DNA of 64,000 nt from an uncultured bacterium (GTDB taxonomy: Bacteria; Patescibacteriota; Kazan-3B-28). Position 1 is the stretch's first letter; each line of letters opens with the position of its first letter. Under the pieces are notes generated by a model. It ran no database searches and had not been told where the DNA came from. It saw nothing but the letters and a program-made list of their open reading frames with translations. This document shows positions 11,035-63,924 of this stretch, piece after piece. The translations under genes were made by a program, and so were the position numbers. The DNA lies in assembly GCA_963695435.1 (NCBI GenBank), contig OY968788.1, forward strand, positions 280,004 to 344,003. The letters are read 5' to 3'.

Positions 11035-11475
11035 TTATCGTTCACCATGTCCATAAGCATTTTCATAGAAAAATGTTCTGCTTATGGGTGGCGGTTCGAT
11101 AAGCACGATGGGTCTTGTGAGTTGCTCTTTCGGTGGCAGTGGTGGTGTCGCTGATGTTGCATGCGCAGTTGTTCCTGCCCAGACAGCAAGGCCAATCATC
11201 AAGCCTCCGATAAGCAAGCTGGCGACTACTCGCTTGTCCAGTTGCACCATCATTATTCCCCATAGGTTGAATAAGATGCCGACAACTGGTGCTGCCCATA
11301 TGACATGGACAGTTACTTCTGGCGGTCTATTTTGGTAGAGTAGCCAGAAGAAGAAAGCGAGCACGGCCAGTAGTAATCCTTTAATCGTCCAGTGCTCTCG
11401 CCCTGTCCGAACAAAATGGATTACTAGGGTGCATAGAAGACCCCCCGTAACCACAAAAGTTTCGCTAGGAGACAT
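11035..11475 (-). CDS. Multi-pass membrane protein, hypothetical
   Basis: 146 aa with four predicted hydrophobic helices. Confidence 0.45.
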   Translation of the reverse strand: MSPSETFVVTGGLLCTLVIHFVRTGREHWTIKGLLLAVLAFFFWLLYQNRPPEVTVHVIWAAPVVGILFNLWGIMMVQLDKRVVASLLIGGLMIGLAVWAGTTAHATSATPPLPPKEQLTRPIVLIEPPPISRTFFYENAYGHGER

Positions 11476-11580
11476 AATCGTAAGGAACCTCCCGTAAGAT
11501 AGGATATGGGTAGCTTACTCCTAAACGGGAGAAATGTCAAGATTATCAGCTTCCAGAGCGGATTTCTGTATAAAACGCGA

Positions 11581-12307: not shown

Positions 12308-12619
12308 ATGGGAAAATTGCCAAAAGAGGATGTGGAGCATATTGCGCTGTTGGCTCGGATTGAGCTAACGGAGGCAGAAAGCCAAAAGTACGCCGAAGAA
12401 CTGTCGGCAGTTTTGGGTTATGTAAGTGAATTGCAAAAAGTGGATACCAACAAAGTAGACGGGGATTCTTCAATTGGTGGGCAGATTACTGGATTGAATA
12501 ATGTGACGGACGGTGATTATGTTCGTAAGTCGGAAATTTCGCGGAAAGAATTTTTGGAACAAGCGCCGGCGAGTGAAAAAGGGTACATCAAAGTAAAAAG
12601 TGTTTTCAATAGAGAATAG
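12308..12619 (+). CDS. gatC: Asp/Glu-tRNA amidotransferase subunit C
   Basis: Typical GatC N-terminus (EDVEHIALLARIELTEAE) and operon position directly before gatA. Confidence 0.85.
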   Translation: MGKLPKEDVEHIALLARIELTEAESQKYAEELSAVLGYVSELQKVDTNKVDGDSSIGGQITGLNNVTDGDYVRKSEISRKEFLEQAPASEKGYIKVKSVFNRE

Positions 12620-12622
12620 AGC

Positions 12623-13984
12623 ATGGATATACAGGAGGCAAAGAAGATAGATTTGAAGAAGTTTCTTGAGAACGCTAAAGAAGCGGATAAGAAATTTCAT
12701 TTTTTGTTATCAATTGCAGACAAAGCGGGCAAATTAGGAAAGGGCGATTTAGCGGTGCCATGTTTGATAAAAGACAACATTGCGACAACGGAATATCCCA
12801 CTACTTGTGCTTCCAAAATGTTAGAGAAGTTTGTTTCGCCGTATGAAGCGACTGTGATTACAAAATTGAAAGAAGCGGGAGCGTGGATTGCGGGAAAGCT
12901 TAATTTGGATGAATTCGCGATGGGTTCAAGCACGGAGAATTCTGCTTTTGGAACGACAAAAAACCCAATTGACCCTACTCGAGTCCCCGGTGGTAGTTCA
13001 GGTGGTTCTGCTGCTGCGGTAGCGGCTGGGATAGTGCCTTTTGCTCTCGGTAGTGACACAGGTGGCTCAATTCGTCAGCCCGCCAGCTTTTGCGGTGTAG
13101 TGGGTTTGATGCCAACTTACGGAAGGGTTAGTCGTTATGGTTTAGTTGCTATGGCAAGTTCGCTGGATAGAATCGGACCGATTACTAATACAGTTGAGGA
13201 TTCGGCAAAAGTTTTGCAAGTAATTGCAGGAAAAGACGAACATGATTCTACAACGGTAGATATTCCTGTTCCTGATTATTTAGCATTTTTGGATGGTAAA
13301 GTTGAAGGAATAAAAATTGGTGTGCCAAAAGAATATTTTGGCGAGGGTGTTGATTCGGAAATTGAAAAGATAGTCAAAAAAGCAATTGAACAATTGGAGC
13401 AATTAGGTGCGAAGATTGTAGAAATCAGTTTGCCTCATTCAAAATATGCATTGGCGACATACTATATTGTTCAGCCGGCGGAAACTTCCGCTAATTTGAG
13501 CAGATATGATGGAGTTCGCTATGGATTTTCAACTGGTGCTGACGAAAAGAAAGAAGATTTGATTAAAATGTATTTTACGACTCGAGCGCAAGGACTGGGC
13601 GCGGAAGTAAAACGGCGAATTATGCTTGGAACTTATACGCTGTCAGCAGGTTTTCGTGATGCGTATTATGACAAAGCTCAAAGAGTGAGGGCGCTTATCA
13701 AACAGGATTTTGATGAGACTTTCAAAAAAGTAGATGTAATAATTTCTCCCACCACTCCGACCGTTGCTTTCAAAATTGGTGAACGCTCTGCTGATCCACT
13801 CAAGATGTATCAGGCGGATTTGTTGACTACTCCTGCGAGCTTAGCGGGGTTACCTGCAATTTCTATCCCTTGCGGAAAAGTTGATGGGCTTCCTGTTGGG
13901 TTACAAATTATGGGAAAACAGTTTGATGAACCAACGATATTAAAAGTGGCGGAGGCATATGAAAGAGTTGCGGGTAATGAGTAA
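12623..13984 (+). CDS. gatA: Asp/Glu-tRNA amidotransferase subunit A
   Basis: Amidase signature [12 protein letters not shown] and [12 protein letters not shown]. Confidence 0.92.
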
Positions 13985-14002
13985 TGAGTTGTGGGTAAAG
14001 AG

Positions 14003-14425
14003 ATGATTATCTATTTAGTAATAGGGCTAGTTGTGGTGGTGGGATTAGGGATTGGTCTTTTGTGGCTGGTCTCTGGTAAACGACAAATAATTTCAGAAAC
14101 TGAACAGGCACGGGTGCGGGAGATGTGGGACAATGTTGATTTGCTGATGGCGGATGAGAGAGAAGCATCTTGGGTGAAAGCAGTTTTTGAGGCGGATAAG
14201 ATTTTGGATTATGTTTTGAATTTGAAAAATGTATCGGGTGCCAATTTGGGAGAGAAATTGAAAAACGGTAAAAGTTTATTTGGGAATGTGCAGGTTGCGT
14301 GGGATGCGCACAAATTGCGTAATCAGTTAGCACATGAGGTAGATGTAAAACTTGCTCGTCATGAAGCAGAGAGAGCGATTAGATTTTTTAAAGAGAGCAT
14401 AAGGCAATTAGGAATATCAGCGTAA
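14003..14425 (+). CDS. Membrane-anchored hypothetical protein inserted between gatA and gatB
   Basis: N-terminal TM helix (IIYLVIGLVVVVGLGIGLLWLV) followed by a charged helical domain. It is flanked by 25-bp direct repeats. The ORF track gives an alternative GTG start at 13991. Confidence 0.5.
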   Translation: MIIYLVIGLVVVVGLGIGLLWLVSGKRQIISETEQARVREMWDNVDLLMADEREASWVKAVFEADKILDYVLNLKNVSGANLGEKLKNGKSLFGNVQVAWDAHKLRNQLAHEVDVKLARHEAERAIRFFKESIRQLGISA

Positions 14426-14445
14426 TGAGTAATGGGTTGTGAGTA

Positions 14446-15891
14446 ATGAGTGATAGTGCGATAGAAAAATACGAAGCAGTGATTGGGTTGGAGATTCATG
14501 TTCAGTTGGACACGAAATCCAAAATGTTTTGCCGTTGCGATAACAATTCGGAAAATGCCGAGCCCAATACTAATGTTTGTCCTGTGTGTATGGGTTACCC
14601 GGGAGTCTTGCCGGTAACAAATGCGCAGGCGATTGATTGGGGAATCAAAACTGCGATTGCACTTGGTTGTTCGATAAATCCAATGCAGAGATTTGATAGA
14701 AAGAATTATTTCTACCCAGATCTTCCGAAGGGTTATCAGATTTCACAGTTTTTTTATCCTGTGGGTGAAAAAGGCAATCTGAAAGTGGATTATTTGGCAG
14801 GGGACAGAAAGACGAAAAAAGAATTTGCAGTTGGTATTACCCGAATTCATCTGGAAGAAGATGCGGGCAAATTGGTACATGCAAAAGATGCTACGCTAGT
14901 TGACCTAAATCGGTGCGGAACACCGTTGATGGAGATTGTGACAGAACCGGATATCAAATCACCCGAAGAAGCAAAGGCATTTTTGCAGGAATTACAACGG
15001 GTAGTCAGACGTCTGGGAGTGTCTCGGGCGGATATGGAGAAAGGACACCTGCGGGTGGATGCGAATGTTTCAGTACGGCCATTAGGGCAGGACGCTTTTG
15101 GCACAAAGGTGGAAGTAAAAAATATGAACTCGTTCCGTTTTATGGAACAAGCACTTCAATATGAAATTGGAAGACAGGTGGAACTATTGGAAAAAGGAGA
15201 ACGAATTGAAATGGAGACTCGCGGGTGGGATGAAAAGTCTACCACAACTATTTCTCAGCGTAGTAAAGAAGGTTCGGTGGACTATCGTTACTTCCCAGAG
15301 CCGGATTTGCCTTCTATTTATATAGGAAAAGAAAAGATTGATGAAATTGGCGATGATTTGCCGTTACTTCCGTCTGCATTGCGGTTGAAAGCGGAAGAGT
15401 TTGGTTTGCCTTATGACCGCATTATTGAATTACAGGATTTGGGAAAGTTGAGAGAGATAGTTTGTCATATCGAAAACATTGAGGGCGTAAAGGGTTCGGA
15501 GGCGCTTGCGAAAGTTGATATTGTGAAATTAGCCAATATGTTAGTCCGTGGAATAGATTTTAAGAACAGCCGTCAGGTGCTGGACTTTTTTGTAGTGGTA
15601 GAAGATAAAGGTTTATCATCTACATCCGCAGATAAATTAAGTTTATTGATGAAAGAACATCCTGAAAAACCACTGGCGGAATTAGTCGGTGAATTGAAGT
15701 CACTTAGCGAAGAAGACTTAGAAAAAATCGTGAAACAGGTAATTGATGACAATCCTGAAATAGTTGCTAAGGTGAAAGCGGGGGATGAACGGGTAAAAGG
15801 CTTCCTGATGGGGCAGATAATGGCTAAAAGTAAGGGTGAGGCAGAACCCGCTCTGGCACAGAATATTTTGAACCGTCTTATTGCCCAGTAG
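14446..15891 (+). CDS. gatB: Asp/Glu-tRNA amidotransferase subunit B
   Basis: GatB N-terminal cradle domain (CRCDNNSENAEPNTNVCPVCMGYPG) and a C-terminal YqeY-like domain. Confidence 0.92.
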   Translation: MSDSAIEKYEAVIGLEIHVQLDTKSKMFCRCDNNSENAEPNTNVCPVCMGYPGVLPVTNAQAIDWGIKTAIALGCSINPMQRFDRKNYFYPDLPKGYQISQFFYPVGEKGNLKVDYLAGDRKTKKEFAVGITRIHLEEDAGKLVHAKDATLVDLNRCGTPLMEIVTEPDIKSPEEAKAFLQELQRVVRRLGVSRADMEKGHLRVDANVSVRPLGQDAFGTKVEVKNMNSFRFMEQALQYEIGRQVELLEKGERIEMETRGWDEKSTTTISQRSKEGSVDYRYFPEPDLPSIYIGKEKIDEIGDDLPLLPSALRLKAEEFGLPYDRIIELQDLGKLREIVCHIENIEGVKGSEALAKVDIVKLANMLVRGIDFKNSRQVLDFFVVVEDKGLSSTSADKLSLLMKEHPEKPLAELVGELKSLSEEDLEKIVKQVIDDNPEIVAKVKAGDERVKGFLMGQIMAKSKGEAEPALAQNILNRLIAQ

Positions 15892-16477: not shown

Positions 16478-18901
16478 ATGACAGGTTTGTATTTAGGATT
16501 GGGGGTGGTTATCGTATTGGCCGGTATCGGCTGGTTTTGGTTATCACAAAGAAAGTCAAAAAAAGGATCGGATGATGTAAGAAGTCGGGTGAATTTGATG
16601 ATTGCGGTTCCGCGACCGAAAGAGGAACAACAAGCGCCGGATATCAAGGCGATTATTGCGCCGATGGAAACTATTTTTAGTAATCTGGCGGGGATTGCTG
16701 ATGCGGTAGGAAATCGGCATCTAACTTTTGAAATTGCTACCGAACAGGAACTAATTAGTTTTTACGCGACTGTCCCTGTAGGTTTGGTAGATTTTTTAGA
16801 AAAACAAATTACTTCACAATATCCTGACGCAATCGTGGAGCGGGCGCCATACCCAAACTTTTTCCCGTCAGACGCGAAGATTGCCAGTGCTCAACTAGTG
16901 CTTAAAAAGGCAAATTATTTTCCAATTCGTACTTACGCCAATCTGCAGATTGATGGGCTTTCGGCGCTCACTAACGCAATGAGCAAGTTGGCTGATCAAG
17001 GGGCAGGAGCGGGGATTCAGATAATGTTTCGACCGATTGAAAGTAAGCAATGGACGAAACAAGCTCACACGGCGGCAAAAAATTTGCAGCAGGGGAAGTC
17101 CAGTTCATCAATTGGTGAAGGGGTTATGAAGGGGTTGGGTGATTTGGTGACACCGACAAATAAAGACGGAAAACAGCCAGAAAATAAAGCAATTACTGCC
17201 GGGCAGGAGGATGTTGTACGGGCAATCGAAAGTAAGGCCTCAAAATCAGGATTTGAGACGGTGATTCGGTTAGTTACAACCGCGCCTGATGAAAATCAAG
17301 CAAGAAGCCATCTAAGAACATTGATTGATAGTTTTTTGCAGTTCAATGCGCCTGAACTGAATGGTTTGACGGTGGCGAAATATCCCGAGATAGAAGTTTT
17401 GAAAGATTACATTTTGCGTCAGTTTGGTGACCCGCGAAATTCATTTATTTTTAATACAGAAGAATTAGCGACAGTTTTTCATTTGCCGGGGCTAAAAACA
17501 GAGACGCCAAATATTCGTTGGCTGAAAGCGAAGCGTTTGCCCGCTCCTGATAATTTGCCGAAGCAGGGGATTCTCTTAGGGAAAAATGTTTATCGGGGCA
17601 TGGAAAAGCCAATCAGAATGGAGACCGATGACAGGCGCAGACACATTTATGTAATTGGTAAGACTGGTACAGGTAAAACAACTTGGATGCAAAACATGGC
17701 GTTGCAGGATATCAATACAGGCGAAGGTGTTTGTGTAATCGACCCACACGGTGACATGATTGAGTGGCTTTTGCAGAGAATTCCGAAAGAACGGGTTGAT
17801 GATGTGATTCACTTTTATCCGCCTGATACAGAGAGGCCTTTAGGGCTGAATTTGCTGGAAGCAACAACTCCTGCCGAAAAAGATATGGTAGTTTCGGAAA
17901 TGATTGCTATCTTTTACAAATTGTTTGATCCGAACAGTGCGGGGATTGTCGGACCGATTTTTGAACACTATATGCGCAATGCGATGCTTCTGTTGTTGGC
18001 GGATGAAACAGGAGCCACACTAATTGATATCCCCAGAGTATTTACGGACAAGGCTTTTCGGGAGGCGAAACTCGTCAATGTGACCGATCCGACTGTTTTA
18101 CGATTCTGGAAAGAAGAATTCGCCCAAGCAGAAAAAAGTAATCAGGTAGGGGAGTTGTTCTCCTATATCATCAGTAAAATTGGACGATTTATCAGTAACG
18201 AAATGATGCGCAATATTGTTGGACAAGCGAAAAGTTCGTTCGACATTCGCAACATAATGGATAGCAAAAAGATTTTGCTGGTGAATTTGGCAAAAGGTTT
18301 GACTGGCGAAATAAATAGCAACTTGCTTGGGTTTATTATGGTATCCAAGATGCAGATGGCAGCTCTTTCCCGCGCTGATATGGCGGAGAACTCCCGTAAT
18401 GACTTCTATTTGTATATTGATGAGTTCCAAAATGTGACAACGGAATCGATTGCCACTATTTTGTCGGAAGCAAGAAAATATCGGTTGAATTTGATTATTG
18501 CGCACCAATTTGTGGCACAGTTGGATGAAAAGATTCGTGATGCTGTGTTTGGCAATGTCGGCTCGCTGGTTGCTTTTACAATCGGTGCGCCTGACGCTGA
18601 AACAATCGGAAAACAATTTGAGCCCGATGTCAGCCAAAACGATTTGATAAATATCGAAAACAGAAATGCTTATGTGAAGCTGATGATTGACGGGATGGTG
18701 AGTCGGCCGTTTACTATGCAGGCGCCGCCGCCGATGGGTCAGCCGAATATTAAAATTGGCGAGGCTATCAAACAACTGTCGCGGTTGAAGTTTGGCAAAG
18801 ACAAACGAATTGTTGAACGGCAGGTGGGTGAACGCATCAAATATACCCGCAATACAAACTTACCCGGAACGGGTTTACAGGGGCCCAATAATCAGGTATA
18901 A
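16478..18901 (+). CDS. Membrane-anchored VirD4/TraD/TraG-like (T4CP family) ATPase, paralog of 6174..8966
   Basis: N-terminal TM; Walker A GKTGTGKTT; DPHGDM; Walker B FYLYIDEFQNV; EARKYRLNLIIAHQFVAQL...VFGNVGSLVAF. The N-terminal domain is also conserved with the 6174 protein (GFETVIRLV / GFQTMIRII; ELATVFHLPG / ELASIYHLPN). Confidence 0.8.
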   Translation: MTGLYLGLGVVIVLAGIGWFWLSQRKSKKGSDDVRSRVNLMIAVPRPKEEQQAPDIKAIIAPMETIFSNLAGIADAVGNRHLTFEIATEQELISFYATVPVGLVDFLEKQITSQYPDAIVERAPYPNFFPSDAKIASAQLVLKKANYFPIRTYANLQIDGLSALTNAMSKLADQGAGAGIQIMFRPIESKQWTKQAHTAAKNLQQGKSSSSIGEGVMKGLGDLVTPTNKDGKQPENKAITAGQEDVVRAIESKASKSGFETVIRLVTTAPDENQARSHLRTLIDSFLQFNAPELNGLTVAKYPEIEVLKDYILRQFGDPRNSFIFNTEELATVFHLPGLKTETPNIRWLKAKRLPAPDNLPKQGILLGKNVYRGMEKPIRMETDDRRRHIYVIGKTGTGKTTWMQNMALQDINTGEGVCVIDPHGDMIEWLLQRIPKERVDDVIHFYPPDTERPLGLNLLEATTPAEKDMVVSEMIAIFYKLFDPNSAGIVGPIFEHYMRNAMLLLLADETGATLIDIPRVFTDKAFREAKLVNVTDPTVLRFWKEEFAQAEKSNQVGELFSYIISKIGRFISNEMMRNIVGQAKSSFDIRNIMDSKKILLVNLAKGLTGEINSNLLGFIMVSKMQMAALSRADMAENSRNDFYLYIDEFQNVTTESIATILSEARKYRLNLIIAHQFVAQLDEKIRDAVFGNVGSLVAFTIGAPDAETIGKQFEPDVSQNDLINIENRNAYVKLMIDGMVSRPFTMQAPPPMGQPNIKIGEAIKQLSRLKFGKDKRIVERQVGERIKYTRNTNLPGTGLQGPNNQV

Positions 18902-20310: not shown

Positions 20311-20408
20311 GGGGTACTTCTCTTTACTCCTTATATGATGTCGTACAAGATACAATGTGCGACACTGTCTATTCTGTTGGGGTGGTACTATTTTTGTGTT
20401 TGTTTATG

Positions 20409-20484
20409 TTGTCATTCTGAATGTAATGAAGAATCTATAGTAATAATTTATTTATAGACCCTTCGACTACGCCCAGGATGACGA
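20409..20484. repeat. Imperfect-palindromic intergenic repeat (MITE/REP-like), copy A
   Basis: TTGTCATTCTGAATGTAATGAAGAATCTATAG...CCCAGGATGACG; shares its ends with five other copies. Confidence 0.7.
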
Positions 20485-30064: not shown

Positions 30065-30185
30065 GATGGAGTAATGAGTTATGAGTTACGAGTAATGAGT
30101 GAAAGACAGTTTGCAGTAAGTAGTTTGTAGTGAGTAGAAAATGTCGCCGCAGACGACCACCGATATTTGCTGATTTGCAGATTTT

Positions 30186-31580
30186 TTATTTACTTTTGGC
30201 TTTCTTTATAGATAAGCCGAGTTCGTCTAATGTGGCGGAATCAATTTCACGGGGCGAACCCATCATTGGGTCACGGCCTTTGTCGGTCTTTGGGAAAGCG
30301 ATTACTTCACGAATGTTGGGCTCGTTTTGCAGTAACATCACAAATCTATCAATACCGGGGGCGATTCCACCATGAGGAGGAGCGCCATAACGGAAAGCTT
30401 CTAGCATATGACCAAATTTTTCATTTGCCTCTTCTTTGGATAAACCGATAATTTCAAAAATCTTTTGCTGAAGTTCAGGTTGGTGAATACGAATAGACCC
30501 GCTGGCAATTTCATAACCGTTCAAAACCATATCGTAAGCTGTGCTGATAACATCTTCTGGATTGCTCCCAAGCATTTCGATTTGATCTTCTTTGGGAGCG
30601 GTAAAAGGATGATGTTCGGAAGTGAGCCCATTTCCTGCTTTTGCAAACAACGGGAAATCTACTACAAAACAAAATGCCAACTCATCGGGATCTTGAGGAT
30701 TTTGACGCAGGTCGGGTTTGTCTGAGCCGTATTTTTCAAGAGCTTCTCTGTGAGTCATTCGGGGCCACGGAGTTTGCAGAATTTTTTTATTCGGATAAAG
30801 AGTTTGGATAAGTTCTGTAAAAAGCTGTTCGGTGAGGCCTAAAATTTCTTTTTCTGATGCGAAAGACATCTCCAAATCAAGCTGGGTGAATTCTGGTTGA
30901 CGATCGCCTCTTGAATCTTCATCCCGCATACATTTAGCTATTTGGTAGTAGCGTTCAAATCCTGCCACCATTAGCAACTGTTTGTATTGCTGGGGACTTT
31001 GGGGAAGAGCGTAAAAACTTCCCTGATACTTTCTGCTTGGAACTAAATAGTCGCGAGCACCTTCTGGAGTAGCGGCAGTAATAATCGGGGTTTCTATTTC
31101 AACAAATTTGCGTTCATTTAAGAATTCGCGGATAAAACGAATTATTTGGTGACGCATTAATAAATTGTGGTGGATTTTTTCGTGGCGCAAATCTAGATAG
31201 CGGTATTTCAAGCGGATTTCTTCATCTACAGCTGATTCACGGTCAATTTCAAATGGCGGAGTAAGCGACTCGTTAATAATTTCTAAATTAGTTGCTTTTA
31301 TTTCGACAGTACCGGTGACAATCTTGGGGTTGATGTTTCGCTCCCCCCGCTTCACAACTTCACCTGTAACTTTTATTACCGATTCAGGTTTGAGACCGTT
31401 GGCTTGTTCTTGGAGCTTAGGATTGTCACCAAAAACGACTTGGACTAATCCAAATCCGTCTCGCAGGTCGATAAAAATAATTTGTCCCATATTCCGCTTA
31501 CTGTGTACCCATCCAAAGAGGGTGACGGTTTGCCCCACAAGGGTCGGGGTGTCAGCGGTGAGAGTGCGGTTTTGTGACAT
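30186..31580 (-). CDS. aspS: Aspartyl-tRNA synthetase, short form lacking the GAD insertion
   Basis: LPQSPQQYKQLLMVAGFERYYQIAKCMRDEDSRGDRQPEFTQLD matches the AspRS class II motifs; N-terminal OB anticodon-binding domain; 464 aa. Confidence 0.9.
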   Translation of the reverse strand: MSQNRTLTADTPTLVGQTVTLFGWVHSKRNMGQIIFIDLRDGFGLVQVVFGDNPKLQEQANGLKPESVIKVTGEVVKRGERNINPKIVTGTVEIKATNLEIINESLTPPFEIDRESAVDEEIRLKYRYLDLRHEKIHHNLLMRHQIIRFIREFLNERKFVEIETPIITAATPEGARDYLVPSRKYQGSFYALPQSPQQYKQLLMVAGFERYYQIAKCMRDEDSRGDRQPEFTQLDLEMSFASEKEILGLTEQLFTELIQTLYPNKKILQTPWPRMTHREALEKYGSDKPDLRQNPQDPDELAFCFVVDFPLFAKAGNGLTSEHHPFTAPKEDQIEMLGSNPEDVISTAYDMVLNGYEIASGSIRIHQPELQQKIFEIIGLSKEEANEKFGHMLEAFRYGAPPHGGIAPGIDRFVMLLQNEPNIREVIAFPKTDKGRDPMMGSPREIDSATLDELGLSIKKAKSK

Positions 31581-31620
31581 AGATAGACTAATAGACGATA
31601 GACAATGGACTTATAGACGG
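31581..31620. repeat. Tandem GTCTAT/GTCCAT heptamer array abutting the aspS start codon
   Basis: On the aspS strand, CCGTCTATAAGTCCATTGTCTATCGTCTATTAGTCTATCT is immediately followed by ATG. Confidence 0.6.
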
Positions 31621-31708
31621 CAAAAAAGCCTGCGGAAATCTCCCCCAGCATAGCAGAAATCAGGGGGTAGAGAATAGAGAGTAGAGATTAGAGAATAGGG
31701 TTATCCTC

Positions 31709-31782
31709 TGTCATTCTGAGTGAAACGAAGAATCTAGACCGAAGGTCGCTACGCTAGATCCTTCACTGCGTTCAGGATGACA
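31709..31782. repeat. Imperfect-palindromic intergenic repeat, copy B
   Basis: TGTCATTCTGAGTGAAACGAAGAATCTAGACCGAAGGTCGCTACGCTAGATCCTTCACTGCGTTCAGGATGACA. Confidence 0.75.
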
Positions 31783-31788
31783 AAAAGG

Positions 31789-35660: not shown

Positions 35661-35734
35661 TGTCATTCTGAGTGAAACGAAGAATCTAGACCGAAGGTCG
35701 CTACGCTAGATCCTTCACTTCGTTCAGGATGACA
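35661..35734. repeat. Imperfect-palindromic intergenic repeat, copy C
   Basis: Nearly identical to copy B, with one substitution in the right arm. Confidence 0.75.
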
Positions 35735-35743
35735 AGGGGGGGA

Positions 35744-41249: not shown

Positions 41250-42437
41250 CTATTTTGGCTTCTTCTCGAGGATTTGTCTTGCAAGATACTGCTTATTTTT
41301 TAGCTTCTCCGGGAGGAAGCTTTCTTGTGTGTATTTCTCGTATCCTTCGCCGTATTTCAGCTCTTTCATCAGCTTTGTCGGTGCGTTTCTGACTTTCAAG
41401 GGAATCGGCAGATTACCGTATGTTTTCACATCTTCCATCGCCCCCAAATACGCGTTATAAGAATCTCTGTTCTTTGTACACTTGCATAGATACACCACCC
41501 CGTGTGCTAAATTGATTGCGCATTCGGGATAACCGATTGTTTCTACCGCTCGAAAAACTTCGTTGGCAACTACTAGAGCAGTTGGTTGGGCTATTCCGAT
41601 ATCTTCCGAAGCAAAAATTACCATTCGGCGGGCAATAAACTTTGGATCTTCTCCCGCATCCACCATTCGCGCCAAATAATATAACGCCGCGTCTGGTTGG
41701 GACGCTCGCATACTTTTTATGAAGGCGCTAATTGTGTTGTAATGTTCATCTCCTTGTTTATCAAAACGCAGAAACTTACTCTGCAAAGTGTTTTTCAAAT
41801 TATCGATTGTAATTTCGCCGTACAGACTTTGAGCATTTTCCAACATTGTAATCGCCTGTCTGGCGTCACCATTTGCCATACTAATTAGCCAATCTCTTGC
41901 TTCTTTATCTAGTTTTATCCCTGTTTGCTCAATAATTTTTGCCATTTCTGTTTCTGACAACTCATTCAAGATAAACACCCGACAGCGTGAAAGAAGCGCT
42001 GGAATTACTTCGAAGCTTGGATTCTCTGTTGTTGCACCGATTAGTGTTAGTTCACCTCGTTCGACATACGGCAAAAGAAAATCTTGTTGTGCTTTGTTGA
42101 ACCGATGAATTTCATCCAAAAACAAAACCTTTGGTTTTTGTTCCGTGGCTTCTCCTACCATTTGCTGATTTGCAGATTTTTTATTTGCTATTATCTTCCT
42201 AATATCATCCTTCCCTGCCGATACTGCCGAAAGTTCAGTCAAATCCGCATTCAAGGCGTTGGCGTAAATCTTTGCCAGAGTCGTTTTGCCGACCCCCGGA
42301 GGGCCCCACAAAATAAACGAGAACAGGTGCTTCTGCTCGATTGCAATCCGGAGGGGCTTACCTTCCCCAACCAAATGCTCCTGCCCGACAAAATCAGACA
42401 AGGAAAGAGGCCTAATTCGAGAGGCAAGAGGTTCCAT
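41250..42437 (-). CDS. rarA: Replication-associated recombination protein A (AAA+)
   Basis: [13 protein letters not shown] Walker [13 protein letters not shown] Walker B/sensor, and a MgsA C-terminal domain. Confidence 0.9.
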
Positions 42438-47686: not shown

Positions 47687-47694
47687 AAGTGTTT

Positions 47695-47833
47695 TGTCAT
47701 TCTGAATGTAATGAAGAATCTATGAAATATTATGTTGTAGACCCTTCGGCCGCCACGGCGACCTCGAGGATGACAGAGAGAGGTAGATCCTGAATCAAGT
47801 TCAGGATGGCAGGGGGGAGGTTCAGGATGACGG
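47695..47833. repeat. Intergenic palindromic repeat, copy D, a composite with a duplicated right end
   Basis: TGTCATTCTGAATGTAATGAAGAATCTATG...CCTCGAGGATGACAGAGAGAGGTAGATCCTGAATCAAGTTCAGGATGG...TTCAGGATGACGG. Confidence 0.7.
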
Positions 47834-51675: not shown

Positions 51676-52444
51676 TAGGAGGTTTGGGCAATTCGCTCGC
51701 TCCACCAAAATCATCTCCTTTCACCTCGGGCTGACTAATCAGCTCTCCTTGTATTACCAAACGACGAAGATTGGTACCGACTGGTGTGCATGTCATTAGA
51801 GTGATGGTTGGCTCGGCAGTCTGCGCCAAAATCTCCACCTGACTGGGCTGGACGACAAAATTTTTATTTACCCGATAGACAAATTTTTTACTTTGATAAT
51901 AAATATAAACCAAATCGCCTTCGGTTAGTTTGTTGAGGTTGGCAAAAACTTGATTATATTTTCCACCGCTCCACCAGTAATATGAGCTGTGACCGGTTAG
52001 AAAAGTATTGCCGTTTTGCCCCGGCATTGCGGTGTCGAAATAATGTCCGACACCATTTTGGATTTCTTCAATAATTGTGGTGTTGTCAGTAGTATTCAAA
52101 TAAATAATCGGCGCGTCAACATTGATTTTGGGGATTACGATGCTGTCTTGGGCAAATAATGATGTTCGCTGATCAAAAAGAGTGGTGACATTGTTGATGT
52201 TGGCGGTGTTGTTATCGACCGCAACTGGCAAATCGTATTTATCCGAATAATTATTGGTCGGTTTGCTCCACAAATAAGACAGCTGGGAATAATAGGTCGG
52301 TCCCATTACAATCAGCACGAGAACGGCGAAGAAGAAAACAAATAACCCCAGGAATTTCAAAACTTCCACCCACCACCTGCGCGGTTGATGTTGCGGGTTG
52401 GCGACAAACCAGTTAGATTGGGGCTGACTAGGGAGAGTGTACAT
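51656..52444 (-). CDS. Sortase family transpeptidase
   Basis: N-terminal TM; catalytic His (TGHSSYYW) and a TLxTC motif (TLMTCTP). Confidence 0.8.
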   Translation of the reverse strand: MYTLPSQPQSNWFVANPQHQPRRWWVEVLKFLGLFVFFFAVLVLIVMGPTYYSQLSYLWSKPTNNYSDKYDLPVAVDNNTANINNVTTLFDQRTSLFAQDSIVIPKINVDAPIIYLNTTDNTTIIEEIQNGVGHYFDTAMPGQNGNTFLTGHSSYYWWSGGKYNQVFANLNKLTEGDLVYIYYQSKKFVYRVNKNFVVQPSQVEILAQTAEPTITLMTCTPVGTNLRRLVIQGELISQPEVKGDDFGGASELPKPPTILPLY

Positions 52445-52490
52445 CTAGATAGACAAATGGACGATAGACTAATGGACAAATAGACAAAAC
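52445..52490. repeat. Tandem GTCTAT/GTCCAT heptamer array abutting the sortase start codon
   Basis: On the sortase strand, TTGTCTATTTGTCCATTAGTCTATCGTCCATTTGTCTATCTAG is immediately followed by ATG. Confidence 0.6.
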
Positions 52491-52496
52491 AAGAAA

Positions 52497-52895
52497 CTAG
52501 GAGATTTTTTGGGAGAGTTGTTCGTAAGTGAGGGCTCCTGACTCATGGCTGCCATCGGCAAATACCCAAGTTGGGTAGCCTCCGATTTTGGCATCGATGC
52601 AGGCTTGGATTTGTTTGTTGGGGTCTTTGGCGTCAGCACATTCAATATAAGTGACATACTGAAAAGCCGTGCCGAACATTGTTTTTTGTTCCTGACAATG
52701 AGTGCACCAAGAAGCACCATACATTTTGGCGCCTTTGGCAGTAAGAGCTTTTGCCAAAGCAGTCCATTTGTCTTCGACTTGAACTTGATTTTGATCGTTA
52801 GTTGAATTGTTTGAGGGAGTTTTGTGATTAGTTACTGCCAACACAGTAAGAGTTGCGATAATGACTAGCAGAATTAGCCAAGAGATTTTTTTCAT
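52497..52895 (-). CDS. Membrane-anchored thioredoxin-fold thiol-disulfide oxidoreductase
   Basis: N-terminal TM and a WCTHC CxxC motif. Start at MKKISW; the ORF-track extension overlaps tRNA-Leu. Confidence 0.7.
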   Translation of the reverse strand: MKKISWLILLVIIATLTVLAVTNHKTPSNNSTNDQNQVQVEDKWTALAKALTAKGAKMYGASWCTHCQEQKTMFGTAFQYVTYIECADAKDPNKQIQACIDAKIGGYPTWVFADGSHESGALTYEQLSQKIS

Positions 52896-52910
52896 ACTGT
52901 GATTGTAGCA

Positions 52911-52994
52911 TGGTGGCCGAGGAGAGACTCGAACTCTCAAGGGTTGCCCCACACGATTTTGAGTCGTGCGTGTATACCATTCCACCACTCGGCC
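52911..52994 (-). tRNA. tRNA-Leu (anticodon CAA), long variable arm, CCA encoded
   Basis: Acceptor ggccgag/ctcggcc, anticodon stem cacga/tcgtg with loop ctCAAaa, variable stem ggg/ccc, T arm gagag-ttcgagt-ctctc. Confidence 0.85.
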
Positions 52995-54246: not shown

Positions 54247-54377
54247 TTGTCATTCTCGACCCTCCTTTGTTGTCATTCTGAGTGGAGCGAAGAATCTAAA
54301 ATATTATAGATCCTTCGGTCGCCTAGGCGACCTCGAGGATGACAGAGGGTAGATCCTGAAATGAATTCAGGATGACG
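54247..54377. repeat. Intergenic palindromic repeat, copy E, same subtype as D
   Basis: Partial TTGTCATTCTCGACC followed by TGTCATTCTGAGTGGAGCGAAGAATCTA...CCTCGAGGATGACAGAGGGTAGATCCTGAAATGAATTCAGGATGACGG. Confidence 0.7.
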
Positions 54378-54440
54378 GTAAAAAGGGGCGATTGCGGGGA
54401 GGGGCAAAAAAAGCTATACTACGACTGATTTTTCTCTCTT

Positions 54441-55897: not shown

Positions 55898-56176
55898 ATG
55901 GCCCATGTAAAAGCCGCCGGTACATCTAAAAACCTCAAAGACTCCAAGCCAAAGATGCTCGGGGTCAAGGTGTATGGAAATCAATACGCGAAAGCGGGTG
56001 ATATTATCGTTCGCCAGCGGGGTCAGAAATATCGCGCGGGTGAAAACACATTGATGGGCAGGGACCATACCGTGTTTGCTAAGGTTGCCGGTAAGGTAGA
56101 TTTCCAAGTGAAGCGGGTACGCAAAAATGGTGTAGGACACGCAACTGCGACCTACATTAGTGTGGTGACGAAGTAG
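55898..56176 (+). CDS. rpmA: 50S ribosomal protein L27
   Basis: [12 protein letters not shown]...[13 protein letters not shown]...GRDHTVFA. Confidence 0.92.
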
Positions 56177-56203
56177 TATCTAGTATCTAGCATCTAGCGA
56201 AGA

Positions 56204-58919: not shown

Positions 58920-58928
58920 TTGTTTTCT

Positions 58929-59036
58929 TTTGTCATTCTGAATGTAATGAAGAATCTATAAGAAAATTATTATTTTAGATCCTTCGATTCGCTCTGCTCG
59001 CTCAGGATGACACTGCGTGTCATTTATAGATTCTGG
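58929..59036. repeat. Intergenic palindromic repeat, copy F
   Basis: TGTCATTCTGAATGTAATGAAGAATCTATAAG...CTCAGGATGACA plus a rearranged fragment GTGTCATTTATAGATTCT that overlaps the last five codons of alr. Confidence 0.7.

Positions 59037-61854: not shown

Positions 61855-63924
<2,070 letters not shown>

Follow-up and report, generated by a model that had tools for sequence, protein, structure and literature searches.

We found that, in the 64-kb stretch of DNA analysed here (the window), the start codons of aspS and of a sortase gene are each directly preceded by an array of GTCYAT units. With a probability of roughly 55%, we read these arrays as labile tandem heptanucleotide repeats kept 5′ of starts without a Shine-Dalgarno (SD) sequence, where they would form G-poor, unstructured leaders and not a gene-specific regulator site. 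The anatomy of the arrays, the multiplicity of heptamer classes, their intergenic and start-proximal placement, their absence at orthologous loci and their low predicted structure were all shown by the analysis.

Table 1. Genes, heptamer arrays and other elements of the window (positions are those of the window; x, number of repeat copies)
Feature	Coordinates	Strand	Remarks
GTAATGA array	13974..13996	+	between gatA and 140-aa ORF; carries upstream stop codon, ends 6 nt before next ATG
GTAATGA array, x4.3	14422..14451	+	between 140-aa ORF and gatB; contains stop codon and next ATG
ACTCATT array, x4.6	30069..30100	-	ends 4 nt before ATG of S11 peptidase (dac)
aspS, aspartate--tRNA ligase, bacterial-type, 464 aa	30186..31580	-	NCBIfam, 663 bits against cut-off of 443
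GTCYAT array 1	31583..31618	-	5 units, spacing 8,7,7,8; ends 2 nt before aspS ATG
Putative extended -10 of aspS (TGCTATGCT)	31647..31655	-	conserved in L121 and L123
TCTCTAN array, x4.4	31668..31698	-	just upstream of putative aspS -10
MITE-like element, ends TGTCATTCTGA...TCAGGATGACA	31709..31783		99% identical copy at 35661-35735
Sortase-family gene, 262 aa	51656..52444	-	protein-family match; start MYTLP conserved in orthologues
GTCYAT array 2	52449..52485	-	5 units, spacing 8,8,7,8; ends 4 nt before sortase ATG
Thioredoxin-like ORF (C-terminal part)	52497..52720	-	stop TAG 11 nt upstream of array 2
TAGTATC array, x3.4	56174..56197	+	starts at rpmA (L27) stop codon; spacer between convergent genes
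TCTCTAN array, x4.4	63876..63906	-	last unit runs into in-frame ATG of gyrB (61855..63876)

The first-pass annotation had reported tandem GTCTAT/GTCCAT arrays in front of aspS and the sortase gene, and both sequences are present: the window holds two minus-strand arrays, each of five GTCYAT units at 7- or 8-nt spacing (Table 1). On the sense strand, array 1 reads GTCTAT-AA-GTCCAT-T-GTCTAT-C-GTCTAT-TA-GTCTAT-CT-ATG, with the A of the aspS ATG at 31580, and array 2 reads GTCTAT-TT-GTCCAT-TA-GTCTAT-C-GTCCAT-TT-GTCTAT-CTAG-ATG, with the A of the sortase ATG at 52444. These runs are far beyond chance. Two cores with a 2-nt spacer (GTCYATNNGTCYAT) matched five times in the window against 0.03 expected, two cores with a 1-nt spacer (GTCYATNGTCYAT) matched three times against 0.01 expected, and every one of these matches fell within the two arrays. 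The single hexamer GTCYAT was not enriched in the window (45 observed, 45.6 expected), indicating that the signal lies in the tandem arrangement. TRF called the two arrays with period 7 (x3.9) and period 8 (x5.1). Aligned over about 60 columns, their leaders are 84% identical, and the arrays have in common the internal pattern T-C-T-Y-T and a central GTCTATCGTC; for a judgement on common descent, the similarity outside the fixed cores is too small a sample. Both arrays are in sense orientation and make up the last 35-40 nt of the leader. The leaders had also been described as lacking an SD, and indeed no 4-nt SD word was found upstream of the aspS or the sortase start.

The identity of both genes was borne out, that of aspS by its NCBIfam match and that of the sortase gene by a protein-family match (Table 1). 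AspRS matched the 590-position bacterial profile in two stretches, with residues 12-294 aligned to profile positions 14-296, and we read the protein as an AspRS without the insertion (GAD) domain. All of its close homologues (456-490 aa) come from Patescibacteria or candidate division Kazan, in agreement with the sortase homologues (Patescibacteria/Kazan), and the source contig measures 560 kb. A heterocystous cyanobacterium, to which the heptamer arrays, the MITEs and a G+C of 44% might point, was rejected as the source on the strength of these AspRS and sortase homologues. Both starts are backed by orthologues, in which the AspRS N-terminus M..(N/P)RTL.. and the sortase N-terminus MYTLP(N)Q align at the same position; the source-genome annotation (P0125, 234 aa) places the sortase start 28 codons downstream of this ATG. 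The sortase gene is co-directional with a thioredoxin-like ORF, and array 2 occupies most of the 52-nt spacer between them. The full ORF upstream of the sortase gene, 52497..52988, is partly spurious, since its 5′ part overlaps a tRNA gene at 52914-52994 (-), and only its C-terminal thioredoxin-like part is credible.

Upstream of aspS, array 1 would sit inside a 5′ UTR of about 60 nt, downstream of the putative extended -10, with transcription predicted to begin about 7 nt past TATGCT (31652-31647). A consensus scan found no full sigma-70 site, and a promoter scan found no sigma-70-like site overlapping either array. Words resembling a -10 inside the arrays (TATTAG, TAGTCT, TATCTA) were rejected by eye as promoters, as they lack the key positions or the spacing of a leaderless start. 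The TCTCT-rich tract and the MITE that had been remarked on next to array 1 are both real, the tract being itself a heptamer array and the MITE recurring as a nearly identical copy (Table 1). The MITE is an element separate from array 1. The GTCYAT arrays have no terminal inverted repeats; they are purely direct repeats with a predicted self-pairing of nil. The MITE-like family with ends TGTCATTCTGA...TCAGGATGACA was seen at 20403-20484, 31709-31783, 35661-35735, 47688-47812, 54264-54378 and 58924-58987, and ends resembling these also occur upstream of aspS in two relatives (L249 and L123).

As RNA, the arrays had almost no predicted structure (0 to -0.9 kcal/mol). Dinucleotide shuffles of the arrays folded no better, indicating that the low predicted structure is a matter of base composition. 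Start regions preceded by an array were less structured than a crude background of the other gene starts in the window (median -5.0 versus -9.8 kcal/mol, one-sided P=0.0017). An SD-like word was identified at 17 of 59 starts in the window, where the starts are again crude. At several window starts, among them 5004, 36687(-), 45595(-) and 54222(-), a TATAAT-like box ends 6-9 nt ahead of the ATG, a hint that mRNAs with no leader or a very short one are common in this genome. Rfam gave no match at gathering threshold in the window except three tRNAs, and no match at E<=1 in either leader. A structured RNA (T-box and others) was rejected on this result and on the lack of a stable fold.

The two GTCYAT arrays belong to a larger set. 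We identified at least four heptamer classes in the window (GTCYATN, TCTCTAN, GTAATGA/ACTCATT and TAGTATC) at eight spacer sites, and all seven TRF arrays with at least three copies have period 7 or 8. The genes beside them are housekeeping genes with no relation to one another (aspS, the sortase gene, dac, gatB, an unknown ORF, gyrB and rpmA). The window is 89.5% coding (10.5% non-coding), yet the eight arrays keep to the spacers, any overlap with genes being limited to stop or start codons. Their placement next to start codons is non-random: for six of the eight arrays the end is no more than 6 nt away from a start codon, and in spacers longer than 100 nt three of four lie within 4 nt of an ATG (P ~2e-4 under uniform placement, calculated post hoc). 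Copies within a class have idiosyncratic variant units in common, as the three GTAATGA-class arrays carry the same deviant third unit and the TAGAGA (TCTCTAN) arrays are 87% identical over 30 nt. ACTCATT is the complement of GTAATGA, so that this class stands upstream of starts in both orientations. In the gatA-orf-gatB operon, the GTAATGA arrays supply the upstream stop (TAA/TGA) together with the downstream ATG; because the unit is 7 nt long, three units give stop and start codons in all three frames. A different repeat of 41 nt is dispersed at 30165-30205 and 42160-42200; its copies are 88% identical and contain ATTTGCWG x2.5. At the second copy, a RarA/MgsA-like ORF seems to be without the beginning of its AAA domain, and this gene may be interrupted or mis-started.

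We then compared the orthologous loci of relatives. The GTCYAT array was missing at all five orthologous aspS loci examined besides the window and at all four sortase loci, which instead had nothing (for instance a spacer of 1 nt), a leader of unrelated sequence or heptamers of another class. For aspS, the relatives L121 and L122 (94% protein identity) have the same TGnTATGCT box followed by a 30-nt, AU-rich, SD-less leader with no array, and their aspS-dac spacer measures 1 nt against 121 nt in the window, where it holds the ACTCATT array (1-12 nt in close relatives). L123 (87% identity) keeps CTGCTATGCTGGGGGAGATTT and has other heptamers (GTAACCC/ATAACTC) and an inserted segment, and L248 and L249 (74% and 73% identity) have unrelated leaders. 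For the sortase gene, the stop of the thioredoxin-like ORF lies 1 nt before ATG-TAC-ACT in L124 (80% identity), a CTAGATA array is found in L125 (86% identity), and TTGCTYAA x4 plus TTCACCA x3 abut the ATG in L126 (67% identity). No GTCYAT pairs were found in about 86 kb of relatives. Period 7 predominates among the arrays of relatives too, and the CTAGATA class is common to relatives at different loci. With orthologous loci carrying no array or other classes, the position of the array is, on sequence comparison, a hotspot, at which the array sequence itself is not conserved. Two further observations concern the relatives. In L249 (Kazan bacterium GCA_001771185.1), the same element of about 125 nt occupies two consecutive spacers, aspS-dac (11385-11509) and dac-der (12452-12583); it has two arms, AAACTCT x4.6 and, inverted, TTTAGAA x4.6, the 3′ arm ending 7 nt before each ATG. 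In L126, CTCGCAA x4.3 at 18026-18055 lies inside a called glutamyl-tRNA synthetase gene and is the sole array in coding sequence in the Kazan-like set.

A metagenome search with a 22-base pattern drawn from both arrays retrieved GTCYAT heptamer arrays in at least 120 contigs, with a G+C of 0.32-0.68 and in every kind of intergenic context. Among the matches listed (L128-L247; for example L130, L134, L181, L201 and L226), the arrays take the form (C/G/T)GTC(C/T)AT with up to 15 units and a strict period of 7, the C and T variants are mixed, and the single-nt spacer is C in 82%. In the same matches, 40% have an inverted partner within 45 nt (GATGGACGATAGACGAT - loop - ATCGTCTATCGTCCATC), and at least 148 other heptamer classes occur in the contigs. 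A preference for sites upstream of starts was absent, with 70 starts and 148 gene ends on the 3′ side among the matches listed. The window arrays, with A/T-rich spacers of 1-2 nt, are atypical of this set. We know of no described family to which the strict period-7 (C/G/T)GTC(C/T)AT arrays of the contigs correspond. A scan of genome contigs with a three-unit pattern gave matches from many phyla among those listed, and neither the source genome nor its close relatives were among them.

Start-proximal tandem heptamers are an already known kind of feature, found here in a phylum new to them. Nearest to the window arrays come the TAACTGA direct repeats of marine Beggiatoaceae (MacGregor 2015, PMC4679880), which occur as 2-6 units, mostly forward, one to a few nt upstream of starts, the largest class ending 1 nt upstream. 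In that genome SD words are rare in the repeat-bearing spacers, and no more than about 25% of genes possess an SD. The genes downstream of the repeats have no function in common, and some of them are essential; certain arrays reach back into the end of the preceding ORF, and a role in translation was put forward as a hypothesis (PMC4679880). The window arrays are likewise direct heptamers in forward orientation, 2 and 4 nt from the ATG, without an SD and beside unrelated genes. They differ in phylum and in their units (GTCYATN, TCTCTAN, GTAATGA and TAGTATC, none of them TAACTGA); several classes coexist here, whereas BOGUAY has a single dominant heptamer, and the units are imperfect, with mixed 7/8 spacing and turnover at orthologous loci. 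Contiguous heptamers (TTTTGAA) also lie near or overlap the start of recF and recO in Nostoc PCC 7120, with a non-canonical SD, and their deletion changed reporter output (preprint 10.1101/2022.06.06.494920). These resemble the window arrays in being contiguous and near the start, and differ in their TTTTGAA unit and cyanobacterial host.

More generally, many bacteria have an excess of heptameric SSRs, which differ from one close relative to the next (PMC4692102). The GGGAATC/GGGGAYT heptamers of Xanthomonas and Nostoc are intergenic and vary in length and sequence though they lie between the same genes, and polymerase slippage was discussed as their origin (Rehm et al. 2015, PMC4692102). In contrast to those G-rich, quadruplex-forming repeats, the GTCYAT arrays are poor in G and have almost no predicted structure. 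PMC4692102 cites Mrazek 2007 for the generic class of tandem heptanucleotide intergenic SSRs of prokaryotes, and mentions the STRR heptamers of heterocystous cyanobacteria (Calothrix, Nostoc). With five head-to-tail units each, the GTCYAT arrays exceed the three 7-nt units that define the generic class, in an imperfect form with mixed 7/8 spacing. Periods 7 and 8 prevail over other periods, the arrays lie in the non-coding fraction, and the same spacer varies between related genomes (L121, L123, L124, L125, L126, L248 and L249), all as described for intergenic SSRs. The likeness to STRRs extends to several classes per genome and to a tandem, intergenic and often gene-adjacent arrangement; the window arrays are not STRRs sensu stricto, as the host is a Patescibacterium with different heptamers in shorter, less perfect arrays. 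Mazel and colleagues reportedly described STRRs in 1990 as tandem intergenic heptamers, of several classes in one genome, that often lie beside genes; STRRs are not known to have an established function. Our literature search found nothing on heptamer repeats in Patescibacteria, and an exact-sequence search of the literature for the heptamer pair likewise found nothing.

The earlier suggestion that the shared leader reflects a common cis-element holds in part. The arrays are real, non-random, SD-less and start-adjacent; a shared specific regulator is unsupported, given at least four classes at eight sites beside unrelated genes and the absence of the array at orthologous loci. The form of that suggestion in which the leader is a regulator binding array fails, in that array 2 lies in a 52-nt intercistronic spacer, an unlikely place for a DNA operator, and the heptamer occurs in at least 120 contigs without a start preference. 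A DNA operator, on which a ribbon-helix-helix repressor (omega-like) or an activator (ToxT/H-NS-like) would polymerise to control transcription of both genes, is very improbable. Contiguous 7-8 bp direct repeats upstream of genes are a known operator format: the omega repressor of pSM19035 (inc18 plasmids) binds contiguous 7-bp heptads. A preprint on Vibrio cholerae links TTTTGAT heptads of the ctxAB promoter to ToxT/H-NS (10.1101/2021.05.14.444153). The window arrays share this contiguous 7-bp arrangement. However, the omega and ctxAB heptads overlap promoters and have known binding proteins, whereas ours are leader or intercistronic sequences with irregular spacing and are not conserved in relatives. 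No promoter-like site overlaps array 1 or 2: the former lies downstream of a conserved putative -10 and the latter inside an operon, and with spacings of 7 and 8 nt mixed, the units fall out of the register on which such proteins depend. Moreover, no DNA-binding family was found among the array-adjacent genes scanned against protein-family libraries.

Foremost among the rivals is a sequence-specific post-transcriptional element, which we nevertheless consider unlikely. An RNA-binding protein (ribosomal protein S1, or a cold-shock or CsrA-like protein) would bind the GUCYAU units and recruit or block ribosomes, and aspS, the sortase gene and other array-bearing genes would form a translational network, as proposed for the Beggiatoaceae TAACTGA repeats. 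Both GTCYAT copies are sense-oriented and stand 2-4 nt from the ATG in place of an SD, the start-proximal bias is significant, unit number and order are common to both arrays, the TAACTGA repeats offer a precedent with the same anatomy (PMC4679880), and deletion of the Nostoc heptamers changes reporter expression (10.1101/2022.06.06.494920). Against this, the array is missing at all orthologous loci, even at 94% protein identity, and at least four unrelated classes occupy the same kind of position, which would require several factors or none; the GTAATGA class precedes starts in both orientations, and in other phyla the heptamer shows no preference for sense leaders (70 starts versus 148 gene ends among the matches listed). 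Also quite unlikely, in our view, is that the arrays are small dispersed repeats, mobile or copied, each about 35-40 nt long with an internal 7-nt periodicity and preferentially inserted or gene-converted at gene boundaries, any function being incidental. The idiosyncratic variant units argue for such copying, as the copies of a class are not homogeneous, and so do the lengthening, in the lineage of the window, of spacers of 1-12 nt to 52-121 nt, the element of inverted heptamer arms in two consecutive spacers of L249, and the MITEs and 41-nt dispersed repeat of this genome. Small dispersed repeats were reportedly found in association with heptamer tracts in Nostoc by Elhai and co-workers in 2008. 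However, the direct arrays showed neither terminal inverted repeats nor target-site duplications, no transposase was seen in association with them, and with only two copies common descent is inseparable from convergence on a 6-nt core. There is, finally, a slim chance that in this Patescibacteria lineage flush heptamer arrays constitute a genome-wide layer of SD-independent initiation or control, read by an RNA-binding protein or the ribosome, along the lines proposed for Beggiatoaceae, and rapidly gained and exchanged between genes; in that case, GTCYATN would represent a single module within a family of repeats found again in metagenome contigs whose G+C differs widely.

Labile heptanucleotide repeats as unstructured leaders thus remain our preferred explanation. 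The two GTCYAT runs would be copies of one imperfect tandem-heptamer class with a 7-8 nt period, and at least four such classes would populate the short non-coding spacers of this Kazan-like genome of the Patescibacteria. The arrays would be evolutionarily labile additions to presumably transcribed spacer DNA, and probably arise via slipped-strand replication, the copying of whole arrays between spacers, or both. They would persist directly 5′ of the starts of genes that have no SD in any relative, where a G-poor, non-self-complementary repeat may give an unstructured leader that is harmless or mildly favourable to SD-independent initiation. The effect on the leader would depend on its physical properties, not on the particular heptamer, and a generic leader role of this kind is plausible. 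Some findings fit this explanation less well: the imperfect units with mixed 7/8 spacing are unlike the products of recent slippage, the internal pattern common to both arrays fits copying or selection as well as neutrality, and pure neutrality does not predict so strong a bias towards the ATG, which fits a sequence-specific factor just as well.

Should the arrays be no more than labile repeats, they would explain large spacer differences between close Patescibacteria genomes, they would mislead gene callers, as for the sortase gene annotated 28 codons too late, and they would offer markers for strain typing. If their placement is functional, these small-genome uncultured bacteria would be a simple natural system for initiation on SD-less, unstructured leaders, a question that concerns many bacterial lineages with low SD usage. 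With these results, the candidate phyla radiation joins Beggiatoaceae, Cyanobacteria and Bacteroidetes among the groups with start-proximal heptamer repeats.
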